Origin: Planctomycetota bacterium
Lineage (GTDB): Bacteria; Planctomycetota; B15-G4; JADJEK01
Direction: 5' to 3'
NCBI GenBank assembly: GCA_016213895.1
Contig: JACQZJ010000028.1
Span: 1,653 to 65,652 of the forward strand
DNA length: 64,000 nt
Shown here piece by piece: positions 1 through 9,429 of this stretch. The notes below the pieces were generated by a model. It did not search any database, had not been told where the DNA came from, and saw only the letters and a list, made by a program, of their open reading frames with translations. Within the stretch, counting starts at the first letter, position 1; every line of letters starts with the position of its first letter. A program made the position numbers and the translations under genes.

Positions 1-1300
1 CGCGGACGGCGGCGTCCGGGCGTTCGGCGCGGCGGCGCCGGTTCCGGACGCCGGCTGGACGGTGGTGGTGCTGCACGAGTACGAGGCGGCAATGGCGCCG
101 GCCCGCACCCTGTTCCGCAGCCTGCTGCTCTTCCTCTCGCTCTTGCTGCTCTCGGTCTTCCTGCTGTCCCTGCTCCTGTACCAGCGCTATCGCACGCAAC
201 AGCGCCTGCTGTGGCAGCTCGACCAGCAGGCCCGCTCGCTCGAGACCGAGGTGCGCGCGCGCACCGCCGACCTGGCGGCGACCAGCGCCCGCTACCGCGA
301 CCTGGTCGAGGACCTGCCGGACATCGTGTACGAGCTGGACGAAGCCGGTCGCTTCACGTTCGTCAGCCGGACGGTGGAGGCGGTGCTCGGCTTCCCGCCT
401 GCCGACCTGCTGGGGAAGACGCACCGCGAGTTCGTCGGGGCCGAGGACCGGGAGCGGTTCGACTCGTTCCGCACCGGTTTGACCGAGGGACAGCCGATGT
501 CGATCCTGGCGCTGCGCTACGCCACGGCGAGCGGCGGCAGGCGTTGGCTGTCGGTGCACAGCCGCGGCCTGTTCGACGCGCAGGGGCGGCTGCGCGGCCG
601 CCGCGGCGTGGCCCGCGACGTCACCCAGCAGGTGCTGGCGGAGAAGCGCATCCACGAGCTGTCGGGCAAGCTCATCAACGCCCAGGAGGAGGAGCGCAAG
701 CGGCTCGCGCTCGACCTCCACGACGAGACCGGGCAGCTCCTCTCGGCGCTGAAGCTGGGCCTGCAGGCGCTGGCCCGCTCGCGCCCGGAAGCCGCCGCGG
801 AGCTGGAGCGCCAGATCCAGCTCACGCAGCAGGCCATGGACCGCACCCGCACCCTGGCCTACAACCTGCGCCCCGCCATCCTCGACAACTTCGGGCTGGT
901 GCCGGCGCTCGAGGACCTCTGCGACACGCTGGCCGACTCGGGACGGTTGAAGGTGGACTACTCGCTGCAGGAGGTCGACGAGTCCCTGCTCCTGCCCAAC
1001 GTGAGGACCACGCTGTTCCGCTTCGTGCAGGAGGCGCTCACCAACGTCGTGCGCCACTCGGGCAGCGGCCGCGCCGAGGTGCGCCTGGTCAGCGGCGAAG
1101 CCCAAGTGCTGGTGGAGGTGCGCGACTTCGGCGGCGGCTTCGACGTGGGCCAGGCGCTGGACCCGGCGTCGGACCCGCGCCGCCTCGGGCTGGTGGGCAT
1201 GCGCGAGCGCCTCAACCTCGTGAGTGGCAGGCTGAGCATCGAGTCCTCTCCCGGCCTCACCGTGCTGAAGGCCGAGGTGGACCTGGGAGGCGCGGCATGA
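1..1300 (+). CDS. Sensor histidine kinase (TM helix, PAS, HisKA_3/NarX-type, HATPase_c); 5' end probably lies upstream of the window
   Basis: The frame is open from base 2. A hydrophobic stretch (LLLFLSLLLLSVFLLSLLL) is followed by a PAS-like segment. The H-box HDETGQLLSALKL and a C-terminal GxGxG ATPase region (VRDFGGGFDVG) are typical of NarL-partner kinases. The stop overlaps the start of the next gene (ATGA). Confidence 0.8.
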   Translation, partial: ADGGVRAFGAAAPVPDAGWTVVVLHEYEAAMAPARTLFRSLLLFLSLLLLSVFLLSLLLYQRYRTQQRLLWQLDQQARSLETEVRARTADLAATSARYRDLVEDLPDIVYELDEAGRFTFVSRTVEAVLGFPPADLLGKTHREFVGAEDRERFDSFRTGLTEGQPMSILALRYATASGGRRWLSVHSRGLFDAQGRLRGRRGVARDVTQQVLAEKRIHELSGKLINAQEEERKRLALDLHDETGQLLSALKLGLQALARSRPEAAAELERQIQLTQQAMDRTRTLAYNLRPAILDNFGLVPALEDLCDTLADSGRLKVDYSLQEVDESLLLPNVRTTLFRFVQEALTNVVRHSGSGRAEVRLVSGEAQVLVEVRDFGGGFDVGQALDPASDPRRLGLVGMRERLNLVSGRLSIESSPGLTVLKAEVDLGGAA

Positions 1301-1965
1301 AGGAGCGCGTGCGCGTGGTCGTGTGCGACGATCACGCCATCTTCCGCGAGGGGATCAAGCAGGTCCTCCTCGCCAACGGCTCCCTGGAGATCGTGGCCGA
1401 GGCCGCCACCGGCCTGGACGCGCTCCGGCTCATCCGCCAGGAGCGGCCGAGGCTCGTGATCATGGACATCTCCATGCCGGAAGTCTCGGGCATCGACGTC
1501 ACGCGGCAGGTGATGCAGGACCTGCCCGAGACGCGCGTCGTCATCCTCAGCGTGCACTCGCGCAAGATGTTCATCCTGGAGGCGTTGAAAGCCGGGGCGC
1601 GCGGCTACGTGCTCAAGGACTCGGCGGGCGAGAAGCTGCTCTCGGCGGTTGCGGCGGTGCTGAACGGCGAGTGCTACCTGGATTCGCCGATCGCCCAGCA
1701 CATCGTCGACGAGTTCATCCGCCTGCCGGCGCGCGACCAGGTCGCCGCGCAGGAGGAGCTGACCGACCGGGAGCGGCAGGTCCTGCTCTTGATCGTCGAA
1801 GGCTGCGGCAACAAGGAGATCGCGGCCAAGCTCCACCTCAGCCCCAAGACGGTCGACAACCACCGCTCGCGGCTCATGGCCAAGCTCGGCCGCCACGACG
1901 TCGTGGGCCTGGTGAAGTACGCGATCGGCCGCGGGCTGGTGGATCCGGACAGCTGGGGCCGGTGA
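1297..1965 (+). CDS. Two-component response regulator, NarL/FixJ (LuxR-type helix-turn-helix) family
   Basis: Receiver domain motifs (VVVCDDH, phospho-acceptor Asp in VIMDISMP, Lys in GYVLKD) and a C-terminal LuxR HTH (ELTDRERQVLLLIVEGCGNKEIAAKLHLSPKTVDNHRSRLMAKLG). The ATG at 1297 overlaps the kinase stop. Confidence 0.9.
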   Translation: MKERVRVVVCDDHAIFREGIKQVLLANGSLEIVAEAATGLDALRLIRQERPRLVIMDISMPEVSGIDVTRQVMQDLPETRVVILSVHSRKMFILEALKAGARGYVLKDSAGEKLLSAVAAVLNGECYLDSPIAQHIVDEFIRLPARDQVAAQEELTDRERQVLLLIVEGCGNKEIAAKLHLSPKTVDNHRSRLMAKLGRHDVVGLVKYAIGRGLVDPDSWGR

Positions 1966-2136
1966 GCAGGCCGGGGACGCGGGCAGGGAAGACTGAGGGA
2001 TCGCCCGAGCGCGAATGAGGTTCCTCCCTCATTCCGCCTGGCGCCAGGCCTCCCGAAGCTGGTCGTGAACGCCGGTTGGCCGGGCCCCGCCGCGGCCCGC
2101 GCCGGCGACACGTACGGCATCTGTGGGAGCCTTGAC

Positions 2137-2436
2137 ATGGCCTTTCGATTCAAGCTGGGAGCGTGGTCTAGCGCGCTCCTCCTGCTCCTCTCGCCCCTCA
2201 CGCGGGCCGCAGGCGAGAAGGCAACCGACCTGGTGGTGGTCGCGGACACCCGCGTGCTCGGCGGGTTCAACCGCTATCTCGCGGACCTCTACAACCACGA
2301 CCTGTGGCTGTTCGCGATCCACGCCGTGGTGCTGACCACCATCCTGGGCGGGACTCTCGGCCTGCTCATGGACGCGATCATGAAGCGCATCGGCATCGAT
2401 CTCGGGCGCAAGAAGACCGCGCAGCAGGAACACTGA
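2137..2436 (+). CDS. Small membrane protein (signal peptide plus one TM helix), function unknown
   Basis: Start MAFRFKLGAWSSALLLLLSPL with a second hydrophobic helix (LWLFAIHAVVLTTILGGTLGLL). It lies 15 bp upstream of the permease gene and is probably co-transcribed with it. Confidence 0.5.
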   Translation: MAFRFKLGAWSSALLLLLSPLTRAAGEKATDLVVVADTRVLGGFNRYLADLYNHDLWLFAIHAVVLTTILGGTLGLLMDAIMKRIGIDLGRKKTAQQEH

Positions 2437-2451
2437 CAGGAGCACGCGAAC

Positions 2452-3507
2452 ATGGACTGGCTGTACATGCACATGCCCATCGCGGGCGTCGACATCTTCT
2501 GGCCCGGACTCCTGCTCATCGGTTACGCGGTCGGCGTGATCGGCGGCTTCTTCGGCATGGGCGGCGCGTGGATGGTGACCCCCGGTCTCAACATCCTCGG
2601 CTTCCCCATGGCCTTCGCCATCGGCACCGACATTGCCCACATCGCGGGCAAGTCGATGATCTCCACCATGCGCCACTCGAAGTTTGGCAACGTGGACTAC
2701 CGCCTGGGGCTGATCATGCTGGTCGGCACCATGGCGGGCATCGAGGTCGGCGCGCAGGTCGTGATGTGGCTCGAGCGCCTCGGCGAGATCGGGCCGGTGG
2801 TGCGCTGGGTCTACGTGGTCTTCCTGGCCCTCATCGCGCTCATGGTCTTCTATGACTACGGCAAGGCGGTGGCCGGCCGCAAGAAGAGCCAGGACCCCAG
2901 TCACACCGGCGCCACCGGCGGCATCAACTGGGCGCCGAGCCTGCACAAGATCCGCATCCCGCCGATGGTCCACTTCCGCGTGGCCGGCATCTACTGCTCG
3001 ATGTGGCTGCCCATACTGGTCAGCTTCATCACCGGCGTCCTGGCCGGCTTCCTGGGAATCGGCGGCGGGCTCTTGCGCATGCCGGCTCTCGTCTACTTCA
3101 TCGGAGTGCCCACGCACGTAGCGGTGGGAACCGACCTGTTCGAGGTCATGATCTCCGGCCTGTACGGCGCGTTCACCTACAGCCTGAAGGGCCGCATCGA
3201 GCTGGTGGCGGTCTTCGTCATGCTGTGCGGCGCCGCCGTGGGCGCCCAGATCGGCACCGTCGCCACCAAGTACGCCAAGGGCTACGGCATCCGCCTGATG
3301 TTCGGCTTCGCGGTGGTCGCCTGCATGGTGTCGATCATCCTCAAGCAGATGGGCGTCACCACCACGGCCACGTTCATCATCCTGGGCGCGATCACCGCGA
3401 TCTGCGTCTACATTATGATCATCATGTTCCGGGGAGCGGCCCAGGAGCTGCGCGAGAAGCGCTGCGCCTCGTCGCAGCCGGCCGACCGAGTGGGAGCCGA
3501 GAGATGA
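2452..3507 (+). CDS. TauE/SafE (TSUP, DUF81) family anion exporter/permease
   Basis: Two internally repeated halves, each with a glycine-rich motif (GVIGGFFGMGGAWM and GFLGIGGGLL), and polytopic hydrophobicity, as expected for sulfite-exporter TauE/SafE proteins. Confidence 0.85.
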   Translation: MDWLYMHMPIAGVDIFWPGLLLIGYAVGVIGGFFGMGGAWMVTPGLNILGFPMAFAIGTDIAHIAGKSMISTMRHSKFGNVDYRLGLIMLVGTMAGIEVGAQVVMWLERLGEIGPVVRWVYVVFLALIALMVFYDYGKAVAGRKKSQDPSHTGATGGINWAPSLHKIRIPPMVHFRVAGIYCSMWLPILVSFITGVLAGFLGIGGGLLRMPALVYFIGVPTHVAVGTDLFEVMISGLYGAFTYSLKGRIELVAVFVMLCGAAVGAQIGTVATKYAKGYGIRLMFGFAVVACMVSIILKQMGVTTTATFIILGAITAICVYIMIIMFRGAAQELREKRCASSQPADRVGAER

Positions 3508-3821
3508 AGACGCTGCTGTCCTGCTGCCTGATGCTGCTCCTCCTGGTCGCTTGCGGCTGCGGGAATGGCGAGCGCGGCCAGGTGTACCAGGGTGTCTGTG
3601 TCAGAATGGATGCCGCCACGAAGACCCTCGAGCTGTCCAACACCGAGCCGGAGCTGAATCCCATCCCGGGCGGGACGGCGCTCTTCGACCTGTCGCGCGC
3701 CAGCGTGGGCCTTCTCCCGGAGCCGGGCGACGAGATCCGAGTCGCGTTCACCAGCGACGGCTCGACTCTCGTGGCGCACAAAGTCATGAACGTCTCCAAG
3801 CAGAGCCTGCGCGAGAAGTGA
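3504..3821 (+). CDS. Small lipoprotein
   Basis: ATG at 3504 overlaps the permease stop. Signal peptide with lipobox (MKTLLSCCLMLLLLVACGC). Confidence 0.6.
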   Translation: MKTLLSCCLMLLLLVACGCGNGERGQVYQGVCVRMDAATKTLELSNTEPELNPIPGGTALFDLSRASVGLLPEPGDEIRVAFTSDGSTLVAHKVMNVSKQSLREK

Positions 3822-3833
3822 AGGGAGGAAGTC

Positions 3834-4088
3834 ATGGACTTCCGCAGGCTGATCATCGTGTCGCTGATGGACCTCTTGCTGCTCGCGTCGCTCACCATCG
3901 CGATCTGGTGGGCGCACTTCGATCCGGCGGCAATCGCGTGGCGCTTCTGCCAGGTGTTCCTGCCGTGCGCGCTCCTGACGGTGCTGGCCGCCCGCGTCGT
4001 CCTCAAGCGGTTCGCCCCGAAGCGGGAGGACGCCGGACGGGGCTTTGGACCGGTGGGACTGTTCGGGAGGATTCCCGACAAGGACTGA
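3834..4088 (+). CDS. Small membrane protein, function unknown
   Basis: Strong RBS (GGGAGGAAGTC) before the ATG and two hydrophobic helices. It is tightly packed between the lipoprotein and the dikinase-like gene. Confidence 0.5.
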   Translation: MDFRRLIIVSLMDLLLLASLTIAIWWAHFDPAAIAWRFCQVFLPCALLTVLAARVVLKRFAPKREDAGRGFGPVGLFGRIPDKD

Positions 4089-4093
4089 GGGCG

Positions 4094-6589
4094 ATGGCGG
4101 CTTCCTTGCTCAACCGGCTGAAGAAGGCCTTGAACGTCCTGCGAGGCAAGCCGCCGGTGGCGGAACCGCAGCTCGCCGAGCTGAAGGCGCGGTTCAACGA
4201 CTTCAAGCACCTGTTGCGCGCCAACAACGACGTGCTGGGAATCATCGCGGAGATCCAGAACCGCCTGGACGAGAGCGGCTACCTGGGGCTGGACTTCCTG
4301 CGCTCGCGCTACATCGCCGCCAGCGCCAAGGTCCTGCTCATGATCCGCCACATGAACCTCATCAGCGGCGGGCGCTATCAGAGCCTGCTCGCCCCGTTCA
4401 TCGAGATCCGCCTGAAGGCGGATGACCTGCTCGCGGCCCAGGCAGGGGGCGAAGCACGGAACCCGTTCCTCCCGCTGGAGTCGGTGCTCCCGGGAATGGA
4501 GCACCTCTGCGGCGCCAAGGCGGCCAACCTGGCACAGCTCGCGCGTGAGGGGCTGCCAGTGCCCCCCGGGTTGGTCATCAGCACGGCCGCGTTCCGCCGC
4601 GTCATGGACGAATCCGGCCTCGACGCCACGCTGCGCAAGGGAGCACTGCAGGCGGAGGGGCGGGAGTGGGAAGCGCTCGAACGCTTCAGCCGCCGCATCG
4701 CGGACGAGTTCGAGCGGCTGCAGCTGCCGGCGGATCTCGAGCGCGAGCTGGTCGACCGCGCCGCCCAGTTGTCCGAGGCGCACGGCGGAGCGAGCCTCTC
4801 GATTCGTTCCAGCGCCCTCGGCGAGGACACGCAATCCTCGTTCGCCGGCTTGTACCAGAGGCTCGCCGACGCCGACGCCGAGATGGCGGCGCTGGTGCAG
4901 GTCATGGTCACGCCGGCGGCGAGCGGCGTGCTGTACACGCGCGATCCCCTGGGCGGCGGCGAAGACTTGATGCTGGTCAGCGCGGTTCCCGGACTGGGGC
5001 TCGGACTCGGCGACGGCTCCATCGACCCCGACGTGTACGCGGCCAGGGCTGGCGAGCGGCCGGTGGTGAACGTGCGGAACCTCGGCCGCCGGGGTCATTA
5101 CCTCGAGCTGGGTCCCGAGGGGCCGCGGCGGCGCGAGCTGGACGCCGCGGAGACGCGCGAGCCGCTTGTGCTCGCGGACGCCGTGCTGGAGCTGGTCCAA
5201 GTGGGCGCGCGCCTGCAGGATGTCCTCGGCGGACCGCTGGACGTCGAGTGGGTGCGGGACCGCGAAGGACGCTTCTGGATCCTCCAGGCGCGGCCGCTCT
5301 CGGTGCTGGAGTGGGCTGGCGCGGGCGCGCGCGTGCGCGTGAGCGCGCCAATGCTCCTCTCCGGCGGCCAGACAGCGAGGCCGGGCGCCGGCTGCGGGCC
5401 GGTCTTCCTGGTGAACGGACCGGAGGACATGGCGGCCTTCCGGGCGGGCGGCGTGCTGGTGGCGCGCGAATCGTCGCCGTCGCTGGCGTCGCTCCTGCCA
5501 GCGGCAGCGGCGGTGGTCACCGAGGTGGGAGGCGTGGCCGGGCACCTCGCCGCCCTGGCGCGCGAATATGGAGTGCCGGCGCTGCTCGGCGCCCGCGGCG
5601 CGCTCTCCCGGCTTCCCGCAACGGAGACCGTGACGGTGGACGCATCCGGCCGCAAGGTCTACTCCGGCCGCGTCGGCGCGCTCCTCGACCAGGAGGTGAC
5701 GGTCGGCTGGGCCCGCTCCACGGCGCGGGCCGCGCCCATCTGGCTGACGGCAGCGCAGCTCATCAGCCGGCTCAACCTCACCGATCCCCGTTCACGGGAC
5801 TTCAGCCCCAAGGGCTGCCGCAGCTTCCATGATCTGATCCGCTACATGCACGAGCTGTCGTTCCTGGAGATGTTCAACCTCGGAGACGAGGTCGGCCAGA
5901 CGGCTGGCGCCCAGGCGCGCCGCCTGCACGCGCTCCTCCCCTTCGAGCTGTGGTTCGTGGACCTCGGCGGCGGGCTCGCGGACGAGGGCGCCAAGCAACT
6001 GGAACCGGGGGCAGTGATCTCCAGGCCTGCCGCCGCGTTTCTCGGCGGGCTGCTCGACCCGCGTGTCCACTGGGGCGGGCCGCGCCCGCTCAGCCTGAAG
6101 GGGCTGGCTTCGGTCTTCACCGGCACGCTGCTGACGCCGCCGAACTCCGGCCAGATACGGGACCTCGGCAACCGCGCCTATGCGGTCGTGGGAGAGGACT
6201 ACTTCAACTTCAGCTGCCGGGTCGGATACCACTTCACCGCGCTCGACTGCTACTCGGGGTCGCGCATCAACGACAACTACATCGGCTTCCGCTTCCACGG
6301 CGGCGCGGCCACGGAGGACCGCCGCTCGCTCCGGGCGGAGATGGTCGAGCGCATCCTGCAGGGGCTCGAGTTCGCGGTGGAGCGGAACGGCGACGCGGTG
6401 AGCGCCTTCCTGAAGAAGCGATCGGCCGACGAGATCGAGAAGGTGCTGGCCGAGATGGGCCGGCTCGTGCTCTTCACCCGGCAGATGGACATGCTCATGG
6501 ACGGACCGGCCATGGTCGAGTGGCTCGCCCGGGCGTTTGCCCGCGGCGACTACAACCTGAGCCGCGCCAAGCCCGAACCGCGGCCCTGA
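4094..6589 (+). CDS. PEP-utilizing enzyme family protein (PEP synthase / pyruvate phosphate dikinase-like ATP-grasp domain plus swivel His domain) with atypical N- and C-terminal domains
   Basis: PPDK_N-like nucleotide-binding start (LCGAKAANLAQLAREGLPVPPGLVISTAAF), a DVEWV motif, and a mobile His domain (VGGVAGHLAALAREYGVPALLG). The C-terminal ~330 aa is not a clear PEP-binding TIM barrel. Confidence 0.8.
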   Translation: MAASLLNRLKKALNVLRGKPPVAEPQLAELKARFNDFKHLLRANNDVLGIIAEIQNRLDESGYLGLDFLRSRYIAASAKVLLMIRHMNLISGGRYQSLLAPFIEIRLKADDLLAAQAGGEARNPFLPLESVLPGMEHLCGAKAANLAQLAREGLPVPPGLVISTAAFRRVMDESGLDATLRKGALQAEGREWEALERFSRRIADEFERLQLPADLERELVDRAAQLSEAHGGASLSIRSSALGEDTQSSFAGLYQRLADADAEMAALVQVMVTPAASGVLYTRDPLGGGEDLMLVSAVPGLGLGLGDGSIDPDVYAARAGERPVVNVRNLGRRGHYLELGPEGPRRRELDAAETREPLVLADAVLELVQVGARLQDVLGGPLDVEWVRDREGRFWILQARPLSVLEWAGAGARVRVSAPMLLSGGQTARPGAGCGPVFLVNGPEDMAAFRAGGVLVARESSPSLASLLPAAAAVVTEVGGVAGHLAALAREYGVPALLGARGALSRLPATETVTVDASGRKVYSGRVGALLDQEVTVGWARSTARAAPIWLTAAQLISRLNLTDPRSRDFSPKGCRSFHDLIRYMHELSFLEMFNLGDEVGQTAGAQARRLHALLPFELWFVDLGGGLADEGAKQLEPGAVISRPAAAFLGGLLDPRVHWGGPRPLSLKGLASVFTGTLLTPPNSGQIRDLGNRAYAVVGEDYFNFSCRVGYHFTALDCYSGSRINDNYIGFRFHGGAATEDRRSLRAEMVERILQGLEFAVERNGDAVSAFLKKRSADEIEKVLAEMGRLVLFTRQMDMLMDGPAMVEWLARAFARGDYNLSRAKPEPRP

Positions 6590-6608
6590 ACAGTCCCGCG
6601 CCGCGCGC

Positions 6609-8120
6609 TCAGCGCGCGACGCGGAAGCCGATGCTGTCGCTCCTCCCGTCGAACGGAAACGAGAAGGAGCGGACCGCCGAGCGGCAGGAACTCGGCCCGC
6701 TGCGCCAGGATCCGCCGCGGAGCGCATGCCCGAAGCCCGTGTCCTCCGCGCTCAGCGGGTCTTTCCGGGGCGAACGGGCGTAGAAGTCCTTGTCGTACAC
6801 GTCCGCGCACCACTCCTCCACGTTTCCCAGCATGTCGAGGAATCCCCACGGATTCGCCGCGTACGTGCCCACGGGCGCCGTGAAGGCGCGGCCGTCGCCA
6901 TGGGGGAACACGTCAAACGGCGGCGGATGCCGTGCGCGCTTCAGTTGATCCTGGAAGTTCCCCGCGCCCTTGCCGTCCAGCTCGTCGTCGCCCCACCAGT
7001 ACGCCGTGCTCGTGCCCGCGCGGCACGCGTATTCCCATTCCGCCTCGCTGGGCAGGCGGTAGCCGTATGCCGCGCAGAACGCCTGCGCGTCCTTCCACGA
7101 CACCTGCGTCACTGGGTGCGAGTCGTCGCCCAACCCCGCCGCGTCGTCTGTGTATCCCCCTTCGCCCGACTCCTCTGCCTCGGTCCGATATCCAGTCCTC
7201 TTCGCGAACTCGCGCCACTGTCCGACCGTCACTTCCGTCTCGCTGAGGTAGAACAGCTTCGTGATCTCCACCTCGTGCCGCGGACGTTCGTCGTCAAACA
7301 GATACCCCTCCACCTCCCACTGCGGTGACCCCATCTCGAACTTCCCCGGATCCACCAGGATGAACGTGATCCCCGTCGCCGGGTCGCGCGCCTTCTTCGC
7401 GAAGCCCGCCGCTTCCACCCAGAATACGTCGCCGATCAGCGCCTGCGCATCGCCGTATGACATCGTGATGTATGCCGCGGCCGCGGAGTCCTTCATCACG
7501 AAGGCCCCGCCTCCCGGCTGCTCCGCATCGTCGACGCAGCCCACGATGAGCCGACTGTGGCCCGAACCCGCGGCTACGGGGTAGCCCTTGGCCAGCACGG
7601 CCTTGATCTCGCGCAGGTGTTCGTCCGTCAGTCCAGCTTCGGGCTTCCACGGATTGATCCAGTGGACCCGAAGGTCCAGACCCCGAATCTCCTTGGCCCG
7701 CGTCACCGCCTCCCCCGACGGCTTGAGCCCTGCATCGAACTCCGCCTGGTAGGGCATGTCCGCTTCCAAGCAGATGCCGTGCTCCTCGAAGCCCCGCAGC
7801 AAGTCATGGAAGAACCCACCGTCAGTCGGATCGCGCATGGCGGCGTTCGACGCCCAGTTCAGATACTCGACGCTGAGCGCGGTTCCCCGCCCGTAGTGCC
7901 GGGAGACGGCAAGCTCGAGCGCGCCCACAGTCGCGAAGACCGAGCAGGTGCCCCGCGCCCCCTGGCTGCGGGGCACAAGGCCCCACCCCTCGAGCTGCGG
8001 CCGCAGGTCCACGGACGCTGGCGCCTCCCCCTTGCCGGCGGGCAGATCGCCCTCCCGCAGAACCGCGGCGCCGAGTACCAGCGCCGCCAAGGTCCGCAGG
8101 AACCCTGAGGCTGCTCGCAT
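6609..8120 (-). CDS. Secreted fusion protein: papain-like (C1 family) cysteine peptidase domain plus FGE-sulfatase / SUMF1 domain
   Basis: N-terminal signal peptide. Papain-type active-site Cys context (QGARGTCSVFATVGALE). C-terminal formylglycine-generating-enzyme fold motifs (HPVTQVSWKDAQAFC, LPSEAEWEYACRAG, GNVEEWCAD, RGGSWRS, GFRVAR). Confidence 0.75.
   Translation of the reverse strand: MRAASGFLRTLAALVLGAAVLREGDLPAGKGEAPASVDLRPQLEGWGLVPRSQGARGTCSVFATVGALELAVSRHYGRGTALSVEYLNWASNAAMRDPTDGGFFHDLLRGFEEHGICLEADMPYQAEFDAGLKPSGEAVTRAKEIRGLDLRVHWINPWKPEAGLTDEHLREIKAVLAKGYPVAAGSGHSRLIVGCVDDAEQPGGGAFVMKDSAAAAYITMSYGDAQALIGDVFWVEAAGFAKKARDPATGITFILVDPGKFEMGSPQWEVEGYLFDDERPRHEVEITKLFYLSETEVTVGQWREFAKRTGYRTEAEESGEGGYTDDAAGLGDDSHPVTQVSWKDAQAFCAAYGYRLPSEAEWEYACRAGTSTAYWWGDDELDGKGAGNFQDQLKRARHPPPFDVFPHGDGRAFTAPVGTYAANPWGFLDMLGNVEEWCADVYDKDFYARSPRKDPLSAEDTGFGHALRGGSWRSGPSSCRSAVRSFSFPFDGRSDSIGFRVAR
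7250..7420. repeat. Duplicated DNA segment shared by the two FGE paralogs (copy 1)
   Basis: Roughly 85% nucleotide identity to 9105..9280 (GCGAAGAAGGCGCGCGAC...GGGATCACGTTCATCCTGGT...). The upstream regions also share a CGCCCAGGATCG motif. Confidence 0.7.
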
Positions 8121-8397: not shown

Positions 8398-9429
8398 TCA
8401 GGGAGTCCTCGCGAGACGGAACCCGATGCCGTCGTACCGGCCGTCAGGAGCGTACCACAGGCGGAACGCGGAGCGGCAGTCCCTCGGATTGCTGCACCAG
8501 GCGCCGCCGCGAAGCGAACGGGCCCCGCCGCCGGCGCGCCCGGCATTCACCGGGTCCAGCTTCTGCGAACGGCCGTAGTAGCGCTCGTCGTACACGTCCG
8601 CGCACCACTCCCATACGTTCCCCAGCATGTCCCGAAAGCCCCACGCGTTTGCCGCGTACGTGCCCACCGGCGCCGTGAACACATGCCCGTCATCAAACGA
8701 GAACACTATCCCGCCGAAGTGGAACTTCCTCTTCGCCGCCTGGTCCGCGAAGTTGCCCTTGCCCTCGCCGCCGGACTCCTCATCGCCCCACCAGTACGCC
8801 GTGCTCGTGCCCGCGCGGCACGCGTACTCCCACTCCGCCTCGCTCGGCAACCGGCAGCCGAATTCCTTGCAGAAGGCCTGGGCGTCGTTCCACGACACCT
8901 GCGTCACCGGGTGCAGGTCGCTGAACTCGTACTCGTGCAAAGGTATCGGCTTTGCCCAGATCGCCCCCTTGCGCAACTCCCCACCATTTCCGGCTGCGTT
9001 GACGGTCCATCCCCCCTCACCGCTCTCCTCGGCGTCGGTCCGGTACTTGGTCTTCCGTGCGAACTCCCGCCACTGCCTTACCGTCACCTCGGTCTCCCCG
9101 AGATAGAACGGCTTGCTGATGTCCACCTCGTGCTGCGGGCGTTCGTCGTCAAACACTTCTCCCTCCACCACCTCCTCTTGCGGCGAACCCATCTGGAACG
9201 TCCCCGGCTCAACCAGGATGAACGTGATCCCCGTCGCCCGGTCGCGCGCCTTCTTCGCGAAGCCCGAAGCCCCGGCCGTGCCGTCCAGGACCTCCCAGCC
9301 CTCCGGGACCTTCCCCGCCGCCGGCGCCGCCTCGCCGCCCGCCTCCGCCTCCTGCCTGGCCCACGAAGCCGCCATCGCGGCCAGTGCCACCAAACCTCCC
9401 AGCGCCGCAACCTTCCGCTTCCCGCTCAC
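8398..9429 (-). CDS. Secreted FGE-sulfatase / SUMF1 domain protein (paralog of the downstream fusion protein)
   Basis: GTG start followed by a signal peptide. The same SUMF1 motifs are present (HPVTQVSWNDAQAFC, LPSEAEWEYACRAG, GNVWEWCAD, RGGAWCS, GFRLAR). The N-terminal region (GFAKKARDRATGITFILVEPG) is near-identical to the internal junction of the upstream gene. Confidence 0.8.
   Translation of the reverse strand: MSGKRKVAALGGLVALAAMAASWARQEAEAGGEAAPAAGKVPEGWEVLDGTAGASGFAKKARDRATGITFILVEPGTFQMGSPQEEVVEGEVFDDERPQHEVDISKPFYLGETEVTVRQWREFARKTKYRTDAEESGEGGWTVNAAGNGGELRKGAIWAKPIPLHEYEFSDLHPVTQVSWNDAQAFCKEFGCRLPSEAEWEYACRAGTSTAYWWGDEESGGEGKGNFADQAAKRKFHFGGIVFSFDDGHVFTAPVGTYAANAWGFRDMLGNVWEWCADVYDERYYGRSQKLDPVNAGRAGGGARSLRGGAWCSNPRDCRSAFRLWYAPDGRYDGIGFRLARTP
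9105..9280. repeat. Duplicated DNA segment shared by the two FGE paralogs (copy 2)
   Basis: See copy 1. The pattern indicates a tandem gene duplication that includes the 5' flank. Confidence 0.7.

Follow-up and report, generated by a model that had tools for sequence, protein, structure and literature searches.

The 64,000-nucleotide stretch of planctomycete DNA analysed here (contig JACQZJ010000028.1, positions 1,653 to 65,652 of the forward strand; hereafter the window) encodes, at the end of a TauE/SafE permease operon, a dikinase of the PpsA/PPDK superfamily whose acceptor domain and functional partnership have not been described before. A novel C-terminal domain stands at the place where PpsA, the phosphoenolpyruvate (PEP) synthase, has its acceptor-binding PEP/pyruvate barrel, and the gene has a tight, ancient genomic partnership with TauE-family permeases. 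We favour the reading that the family comprises ATP-driven dikinases with a small-molecule, non-pyruvate acceptor related to the TauE cargo, to which we assign a probability of roughly 0.55.

The dikinase gene starts with an ATG 5 nt past the stop codon of the preceding gene. Its reading frame extends further upstream, from 3551 and across two other genes; since homologues share a MAASLLNRL-type N-terminus as their common start, this extension is not used. The 831-aa protein is composed of four parts, a three-helix bundle, a PPDK_N ATP-grasp domain, a swivel phospho-histidine domain (His484), and a C-terminal domain of ~300 aa:

4094..6589, + strand: PpsA-like dikinase gene, 831 aa, last in the operon (open reading frame; Pfam, NCBIfam and PDB matches).
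4094..4459, + strand: family-specific N-terminal three-helix bundle, residues 1-~122, with conserved F37, N44 and L98 (alignment, AlphaFold2 (AF2) model).
4466..5308, + strand: ATP-grasp nucleotide-binding domain (PPDK_N), Lys142 and Arg238-Ser-Ser kept (PF01326, hhalign, invariant columns).
4859..4860, + strand: site where 99 bp (33 aa) of the ATP-grasp core are deleted in frame, as compared with contig L001 and every homologue examined.
5429..5653, + strand: swivel phospho-histidine domain, residues 450-518 (PF00391, E=5.6e-17), with the codon of the catalytic His484 at 5543..5545.
5690..6586, + strand: family-specific alpha+beta C-terminal domain, ~300 aa (profile, AF2, alignment).
5816..5851, + strand: CxxxHDxxRxxH motif (Cys575-His586) at the start of a long helix.

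The two central domains follow PpsA closely. Comparison of full-length profiles by hhalign yields a probability of 100% across the ATP-grasp and swivel regions, with His484 aligned to the catalytic His of PpsA, and the nucleotide-binding motifs GxK, RSSxxxED, SFAGQ, DxEW, and QxRP are kept in the family (alignment, hhalign). The swivel motif G....H.A...RE...P is found in 304 of the 325 full-length family proteins. By homology, autophosphorylation of His484 from ATP would be expected. In the window protein, Pfam detects PPDK_N (PF01326) with E=5.9e-49, split into two stretches because of the 33-aa deletion, while solved PpsA chains from the PDB align with residues 259-534 only. The original prediction had called both domains clear; both are indeed found by Pfam and hhalign, but the ATP-grasp domain is devoid of 33 core residues.

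Outside these domains the resemblance ends, as Pfam has no match in residues 1-~125 or ~533-831 of the window protein. We aligned the last ~300 residues of 34 family members. None of these C-terminal domains matches any Pfam model, PF02896 (PEP-utilizers_C) included, and their profile finds no match among PDB sequences. Against four true PpsA proteins carrying PF02896, the profile reaches an hhalign probability of just 0.08%. The AF2 model of the domain (pLDDT 79.6, pTM 0.69) displays a long helix and, after it, antiparallel sheets against which helices pack; the model lacks the alternating (beta-alpha)8 order, and its fold matches contain no TIM barrel, no rifampin phosphotransferase (RPH) structure, and no close solved fold. 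The prediction that the C-terminus lacks a PEP-binding TIM barrel is thus borne out by Pfam, hhalign, and AF2, for a remainder of ~300 aa rather than the ~330 first estimated. An end-to-end alignment with the PpsA barrel including its catalytic Cys fails, in line with the earlier suspicion that this is not a bona fide PEP synthase.

Fifteen columns of the 34-member alignment are invariant, including (window numbering) Cys575, His579, Asp580, Arg583, His586, His713, Arg747, Asp767, and Asp799, and the window protein retains all of the invariant columns. CxxxHDxxRxxH occurs in 317 of the 325 full-length family proteins and in none of three PpsA-like proteins checked; the eight exceptions keep HDxxRxxH with the Cys replaced. 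On our reading of the model, the i, i+4, i+8, i+11 spacing would place Cys, His, Arg, and His of the motif on one helix face. Distinct from the PpsA barrel, the domain has the look of an active site. A rhodanese-, PTP- or HD-like site was considered and rejected: Neither Pfam nor the fold search supports one, and the Cys is replaced in the eight proteins just mentioned.

The additional helical domain predicted at the N-terminus is likewise seen. In the AF2 model (pLDDT 88.6), the extension folds into a short helix and three long helices (24-61, 66-91, and 96-121), and its F..LL.ANN motif is present in the window protein according to the N-terminal alignment and the model. A fold search with this bundle returns generic helical bundles only. 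A role as a histidine phosphotransfer (HPt)-like module is unlikely, because no His is found among the conserved columns (F37, N44, L98).

The family is large. Searched against 1.84 billion proteins, the C-terminal profile matches 1,671 clusters at E<=1e-3 (representatives at 50% identity). The 150 best of these have the domain at the C-terminus, mostly of 830-900-aa proteins; shorter entries resemble fragments. A scan of species-representative genomes with a 10-sequence alignment as query gave at least 553 confirmed matches to the C-terminal domain, the best 80 of which were kept. These best 80 of at least 553 loci belong mostly to Desulfobacterota (Desulfarculus, Nitratidesulfovibrio, Desulfatitalea, Syntrophobacter), and Planctomycetota, Binatia, Sumerlaeota and others are also among them. 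The names under which databases list the homologues are nonspecific or incorrect ("PEP/pyruvate-binding domain-containing protein", "pyruvate, water dikinase", "phosphoenolpyruvate synthase"), and our literature search found no paper on this dikinase family.

The partnership with the permease is apparent from the 45 related loci with at least 5 kb of flank on each side. Because these come from the best 80 of at least 553 loci, relatives at 40-90% identity are over-represented in the synteny statistics. A DVU0150-like gene and a TauE orthologue (at least 55% identity) lie within 10 kb of the dikinase in 41 of the 45 loci, and the DVU0150-like gene adjoins TauE in 41 of 45. TauE is placed upstream and co-directional in 14/45 loci, upstream and divergent in 18/45, and downstream and convergent in 10/45; the operon-like order of the window recurs in L002-L024 and L030. 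This comparison across phyla upholds the proposed association with a permease, small proteins, and two-component genes.

Moreover, the dikinase is integrated with two-component signalling. A receiver-only gene is found within 3 kb in 28 of 45 loci, and a dCache-type kinase is part of the locus in 28 of 45. Desulfarculus-type loci (L002-L005, L007-L014, L018; for instance L004, 10583..15286) contain two family members per cluster: Downstream of the first dikinase come a dCache kinase, a receiver-only regulator, and a paralogous dikinase that shares ~33% identity with the window protein. This module is absent from L006, and tblastn detects no second kinase, receiver, or dikinase of this kind in the 64-kb window. 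In distant subfamilies from Acidobacteriota and other taxa (L088-L091; for instance L089, 2643..9344), a HAMP kinase, TauE, Alph_Pro_TM, the dikinase, and a receiver form a compact operon in which the receiver is a gene of its own or, often, a C-terminal extension of the dikinase. Such a Rosetta-stone fusion occupies residues 855-965 of P0106 and occurs in about half of its 120 best relatives. Because of these fusions and the constant receiver and kinase neighbours, we regard the enzyme as an output of two-component signalling.

Several loci vary this theme. L085 carries a second dikinase, with the N- and C-terminal family motifs, beside another TauE and a receiver. In the Desulfovibrio metagenome-assembled genome (MAG) L087 (1..7641), the family member is preceded by a Na_sulph_symp (DASS) transporter fragment, Yip1, and a receiver-only gene; two kinase/receiver pairs come after it, and the permease partner is DASS, not TauE. 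One distant family member has no permease nearby. A Cytidylate_kin2+BON gene lies repeatedly close by in L088-L091, as do DsrE, Rrf2, and siroheme-synthesis genes in L090.

In Nitratidesulfovibrio sp. HK-II (L047), the dikinase starts 4 nt past the stop of a sigma-54 activator that is divergent from the permease operon; the latter reads DVU0150-like, TauE, DUF4881 lipoprotein, a 373-aa protein, and a receiver. This layout agrees with the published description of DVU0145-DVU0151 (PMC4641369). That study predicts control of DVU0150-DVU0146 of D. vulgaris Hildenborough (DvH) by the divergently oriented sigma-54 activator DVU0151 and places the operon under "transmembrane transport" (PMC4641369); the same operon is up-regulated in syntrophic co-culture (PMC4265775). 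Neither paper discusses the dikinase, and our literature search returned nothing on DVU0152, the gene expected after DVU0151. The window operon shares with DVU0150-DVU0146 the DVU0150-like gene, TauE, and the lipoprotein. It differs in that the dikinase lies within the permease operon and that the regulator is a NarL-type two-component pair instead of a sigma-54 activator.

In the window, the order is PAS-HisKA_3 kinase, NarL-type regulator, a 171-nt gap, DVU0150-like gene, TauE, lipoprotein, two-helix membrane protein, and dikinase, with intergenic gaps inside the operon of 15, -4, 12, and 5 nt. The neighbours are as originally described, an anion permease, small membrane proteins and a lipoprotein, with a two-component system upstream:

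1..1300, + strand: 3' part of a sensor histidine kinase (PAS, HisKA_3, HATPase_c by Pfam), running off the left window end.
1297..1965, + strand: NarL/GerE-type response regulator, receiver plus LuxR-type helix-turn-helix (Response_reg E=3e-26, GerE E=6.5e-19).
2015..2032, no strand assigned: palindrome ATGAGG-N6-CCTCAT, ~105 nt upstream of the DVU0150-like gene.
2137..2436, + strand: DVU0150-like small protein with signal peptide and C-terminal transmembrane (TM) helix, first operon gene (52% identity to the L004 gene).
2452..3507, + strand: TauE/SafE (TSUP family) permease, 351 aa (PF01925, E=5.7e-42).
3504..3821, + strand: lipoprotein, 105 aa, lipobox LVAC, its start overlapping the TauE stop by 4 nt (sequence reading).
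3834..4088, + strand: 84-aa protein with two predicted TM helices (sequence reading; 49% identity to the L004 counterpart).
6609..8120 and 8398..9429, - strand: two tandem FGE-sulfatase (formylglycine-generating-enzyme-like) genes, directly downstream.

Residues 254-681 of the Desulfarculus kinase align with 11..1297 of the window at 59% identity (tblastn); kinase homologues measure ~660-680 aa and have an N-terminal dCache region, which for the window kinase falls outside the window. The regulator overlaps the kinase stop by 4 nt and is 66% identical to its Desulfarculus counterpart. For the small proteins, the L004 counterpart of the DVU0150-like protein has a precomputed PF28216 (DVU0150) match, and the 105-aa lipoprotein is 52% identical to an L004 gene with a weak C-terminal DUF4881 match. 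The TauE permease itself is 86.5% identical at the protein level to the Desulfarculus orthologue. Across Binatia and Thermodesulfobacteriota loci, TauE is 85-92% identical, whereas its operon partners reach merely 49-66%, a pattern that suggests either unusually strong constraint on the permease or recent transfer. The FGE-sulfatase pair shares a stretch of ~76% identical DNA, and the first gene has a weak papain-like match at its N-terminus; both lie outside the cluster conserved in other taxa.

The palindrome occurs once in the 64 kb, against 0.10 matches expected, and recurs at the corresponding place in seven loci of other phyla (L004/5, L010, L012/13, L014, L018); L006 has a version with one mismatch. 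Most palindrome-bearing loci possess a PAS kinase and NarL-type regulator pair upstream of the operon. L002 has this pair without an exact match to the palindrome. The NarL-type regulator may plausibly use the palindrome as its operator. Promoter and terminator scans of 1900..6900 detected nothing and are uninformative in planctomycete DNA of 70% G+C.

The window allele itself departs from the family in its ATP-grasp core. P0001, the best database match, is an 864-aa protein identical at 830 of 831 aligned positions, with one 33-residue gap; its swivel His, H517, corresponds to His484 of the window protein. The contig encoding it (L001, Logan assembly of SRR12113406) is identical in DNA to window positions 3262..7017 save the 99 bp. 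The missing segment, TRLGVRPVEVPRAYREVLGSLFTTQALAYRGRQG, comprises residues 256-289 of P0001 (33 residues net) and aligns with a conserved strand and helix of PpsA; within it lie the near-invariant L258, V260, Y269, A274, and Y284 (P0001 numbering). Every aligned homologue retains the segment, as does L006, a Phycisphaerae-labelled MAG and the closest species-representative genome (~92% DNA identity upstream of the junction). Its absence is confined to the window allele, which does not have the intact ATP-grasp core that is otherwise family-wide.

If the deletion is real, the window copy is probably impaired. We place even odds on the explanation that the window copy is a dead allele or the deletion an assembly artefact, a question separate from the function of the family. 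In its favour, the independent SRR12113406 contig matches 3.7 kb exactly apart from the 99 bp, the conserved segment is present in L006 and in all aligned homologues, the PPDK_N score drops to 168 bits from the 311 bits of an intact homologue, and the microhomology flanking the junction is just 4 nt (CCAG). On the other hand, the deletion is in frame, and the gene bears no further lesion elsewhere.

For the family, we propose the following route. By homology with PpsA, the ATP-grasp domain would bind ATP and the beta-phosphate would move to His484 of the swivel domain, which would then hand it to an acceptor held by the C-terminal domain. This domain bears the helix face with (Cys)-His-Asp-Arg-His, together with other invariant His, Arg, and Asp residues. 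Because the C-terminal domain replaces the PEP/pyruvate TIM barrel, the acceptor would not be pyruvate. The enzyme would be tied functionally to the TauE/TSUP anion permease and its small membrane partners and would stand under two-component control, here by the PAS kinase, the NarL-type regulator and the palindrome, elsewhere by fused or adjacent receivers. Most likely, it would phosphorylate the permease cargo, or a closely related small anion or metabolite, after uptake and thereby trap or activate it. The domain anatomy, the missing TIM barrel, the family size, the synteny, the receiver fusions, and the deletion are observed; which way the phosphoryl group flows, what kind of acceptor receives it, and that the enzyme is coupled to transport are what we infer. 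A small-molecule acceptor is favoured because characterised relatives use the non-ATP-grasp domain as their substrate site, to our knowledge without exception, and because the C-terminal domain is sizeable and has many invariant His, Asp, and Arg residues.

Known dikinases share parts of this architecture. PpsA (PDB 8a8e, 2ols) is the best sequence match and has the same ATP-grasp-then-swivel order, nucleotide motifs, and catalytic His. In contrast, the window family carries an unrelated alpha+beta domain in place of the TIM barrel, adds the N-terminal three-helix bundle, and resides among permease and two-component genes rather than in a gluconeogenesis context. RPH-type enzymes set the precedent for dikinases with non-pyruvate acceptors; like the window family, RPH (PDB 5hv1, 5fbs; PigC/RedH, PRK06241 group) is a PpsA-superfamily dikinase with a non-pyruvate acceptor site. 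Further, the swivel phospho-His of Enzyme I of the phosphotransferase system (PTS) passes phosphate to a protein (HPr), and plant glucan, water dikinase phosphorylates a polymer (starch), an activity that a dual-specificity phosphatase (SEX4) can oppose. Unlike the window family, PTS Enzyme I uses PEP instead of ATP as donor and has a TIM barrel, while in glucan, water dikinase the domains come in reverse order and carbohydrate-binding modules are present; both show weak similarity to the window protein in the swivel domain only.

Published work describes clusters of similar build. The Desulfovibrio "nitrate cluster" DVU0251-DVU0245 / Dde_0597-0605 (Korte et al. 2014, PMC4001038) encodes TauE (DVU0251), DVU0250, a PtxB-like protein (DVU0249), a kinase (DVU0248), a receiver-only regulator (DVU0247), a 744-aa protein with PPDK_N and a mobile domain (DVU0246), and a phosphatase-like protein (DVU0245). 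Transposon mutants in the TauE, regulator, and dikinase-like genes are all nitrate resistant, and mutation of the adjacent dual-specificity-phosphatase-like gene has the reverse effect in DvH; thiosulfate uptake, by a leaky transporter, is the authors' proposal (PMC4001038). The cluster shares with the window operon and its relatives TauE, a small hypothetical protein, a histidine kinase, a receiver-only regulator, and a PPDK_N plus mobile-domain protein; its PtxB-like binding protein and dual-specificity-phosphatase-like gene are absent in the window. In Dissulfuribacter thermophilus, thiosulfate disproportionation goes along with a higher abundance of three neighbours, DITHS69_1988 ("PEP synthase"), 1989 ("TM protein co-occurring with TauE"), and 1990 (TauE), and the proteomics study took the "PEP synthase"-labelled gene beside TauE as gluconeogenesis (PMC13490349). 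Membership of DVU0246 and DITHS69_1988 in the family is a lead, not a result, and neither organism is among the matches listed in our second homologue search.

The name carried by several homologues ("phosphoenolpyruvate synthase" or "pyruvate, water dikinase") would imply a true PEP synthase whose C-terminal PEP-binding barrel has diverged very far, and the PpsA-like domain order as well as the best NCBIfam and PDB matches, all to PpsA, lend it some appeal. The equivalog scores fall far under their cut-offs, though (NF005057, 195.8 bits vs 598; TIGR01418, 187.8 vs 739.75), PF02896 is absent in all members, and the hhalign probability of the C-terminal profile against PpsA is 0.08%. We give this explanation next to no credence and take it as refuted as far as sequence and predicted fold allow. 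PPDK fares no better as a template (TIGR01828, 40.3 bits vs 843.45; no PF02896 match). An RPH-like enzyme inactivating a xenobiotic or antibiotic and paired with an efflux permease is very improbable, even though the RPH and PRK06241 models are the second-best NCBIfam matches and RPH structures match the ATP-grasp domain. The scores are low (NF041857, 162.8 bits vs a cut-off of 999; NF000283, 113.1 vs 1700), and RPH chains cover the window protein only in three separate stretches. RPH has its acceptor domain in the middle and its swivel domain at the C-terminus, whereas in the window protein the swivel domain is central (450-518) and followed by 300 aa, and the C-terminal domain has no sequence or fold similarity to RPH. 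The family is, moreover, concentrated in anaerobic Desulfobacterota, with sensors and anion permeases rather than resistance genes as partners. The original analogy with RPH therefore does not extend to anatomy: The PpsA order is kept, and RPH is missing from the fold matches.

A regulatory phosphotransferase deserves more attention, since the receiver and kinase context also accommodates a protein or permease target. Here the dikinase would phosphorylate a protein (TauE, a small membrane partner, or a receiver) and so turn transport on or off. Several subfamilies have receiver fusions and receiver-only neighbours as a rule, and in the distant subfamilies a kinase belongs to the same operon. 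The Nitratidesulfovibrio gene comes after the sigma-54 activator that controls the DVU0150 operon (PMC4641369). In the nitrate cluster, loss of the regulator or the dikinase-like gene gives the phenotype of TauE loss, with the phosphatase-like mutant opposite in DvH (PMC4001038), but the transposon phenotypes are possibly polar and rely on DVU0246 belonging to the family. Receivers commonly just regulate the enzyme to which they are attached, which makes them uninformative on the acceptor, and a 300-aa domain with ~15 invariant polar or structural residues resembles a catalytic substrate-binding domain, not a docking surface. The characterised ATP-grasp/swivel dikinases we know of all act on small molecules or glucans. 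On balance, we consider a regulatory phosphotransferase unlikely, yet a serious contender.

Several observations weigh against the small-molecule dikinase that we prefer. No conserved downstream enzyme using a phosphorylated product is seen in the clusters, which also speaks for the regulatory alternative. The L047 gene is co-transcribed with a sigma-54 activator and not with the permease, fitting a regulatory role equally with a metabolic one. Distant members lie beside a DASS transporter or without a nearby permease, the window allele is without a core segment of its ATP-grasp domain, and replacement of the Cys in 8/325 proteins means that Cys-based chemistry is not obligatory.

Annotation pipelines routinely call these enzymes "PEP synthase" or "pyruvate, phosphate dikinase", which is a misannotation; if DITHS69_1988 belongs to the family, labels of this kind misdirect the metabolic reconstruction of sulfate reducers and other anaerobes. 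The C-terminal domain is without a Pfam model, and the substrates and energetics of the TauE/TSUP partners are poorly known. More speculatively, a PEP-synthase-derived phospho-His output of two-component signalling might gate TSUP/TauE or its small membrane partner by phosphorylation, or might phosphorylate an entering sulfur oxyanion (thiosulfate, sulfite); the latter variant could be a group-translocation-like step for inorganic anions. If true, this would provide an energy-coupled or signal-gated mechanism for the poorly understood TauE family. The identity of the acceptor would explain two Desulfovibrio phenotypes of similarly built clusters, nitrate sensitivity and syntrophic induction, and could reveal a new way in which ATP is coupled to anion transport or its control.

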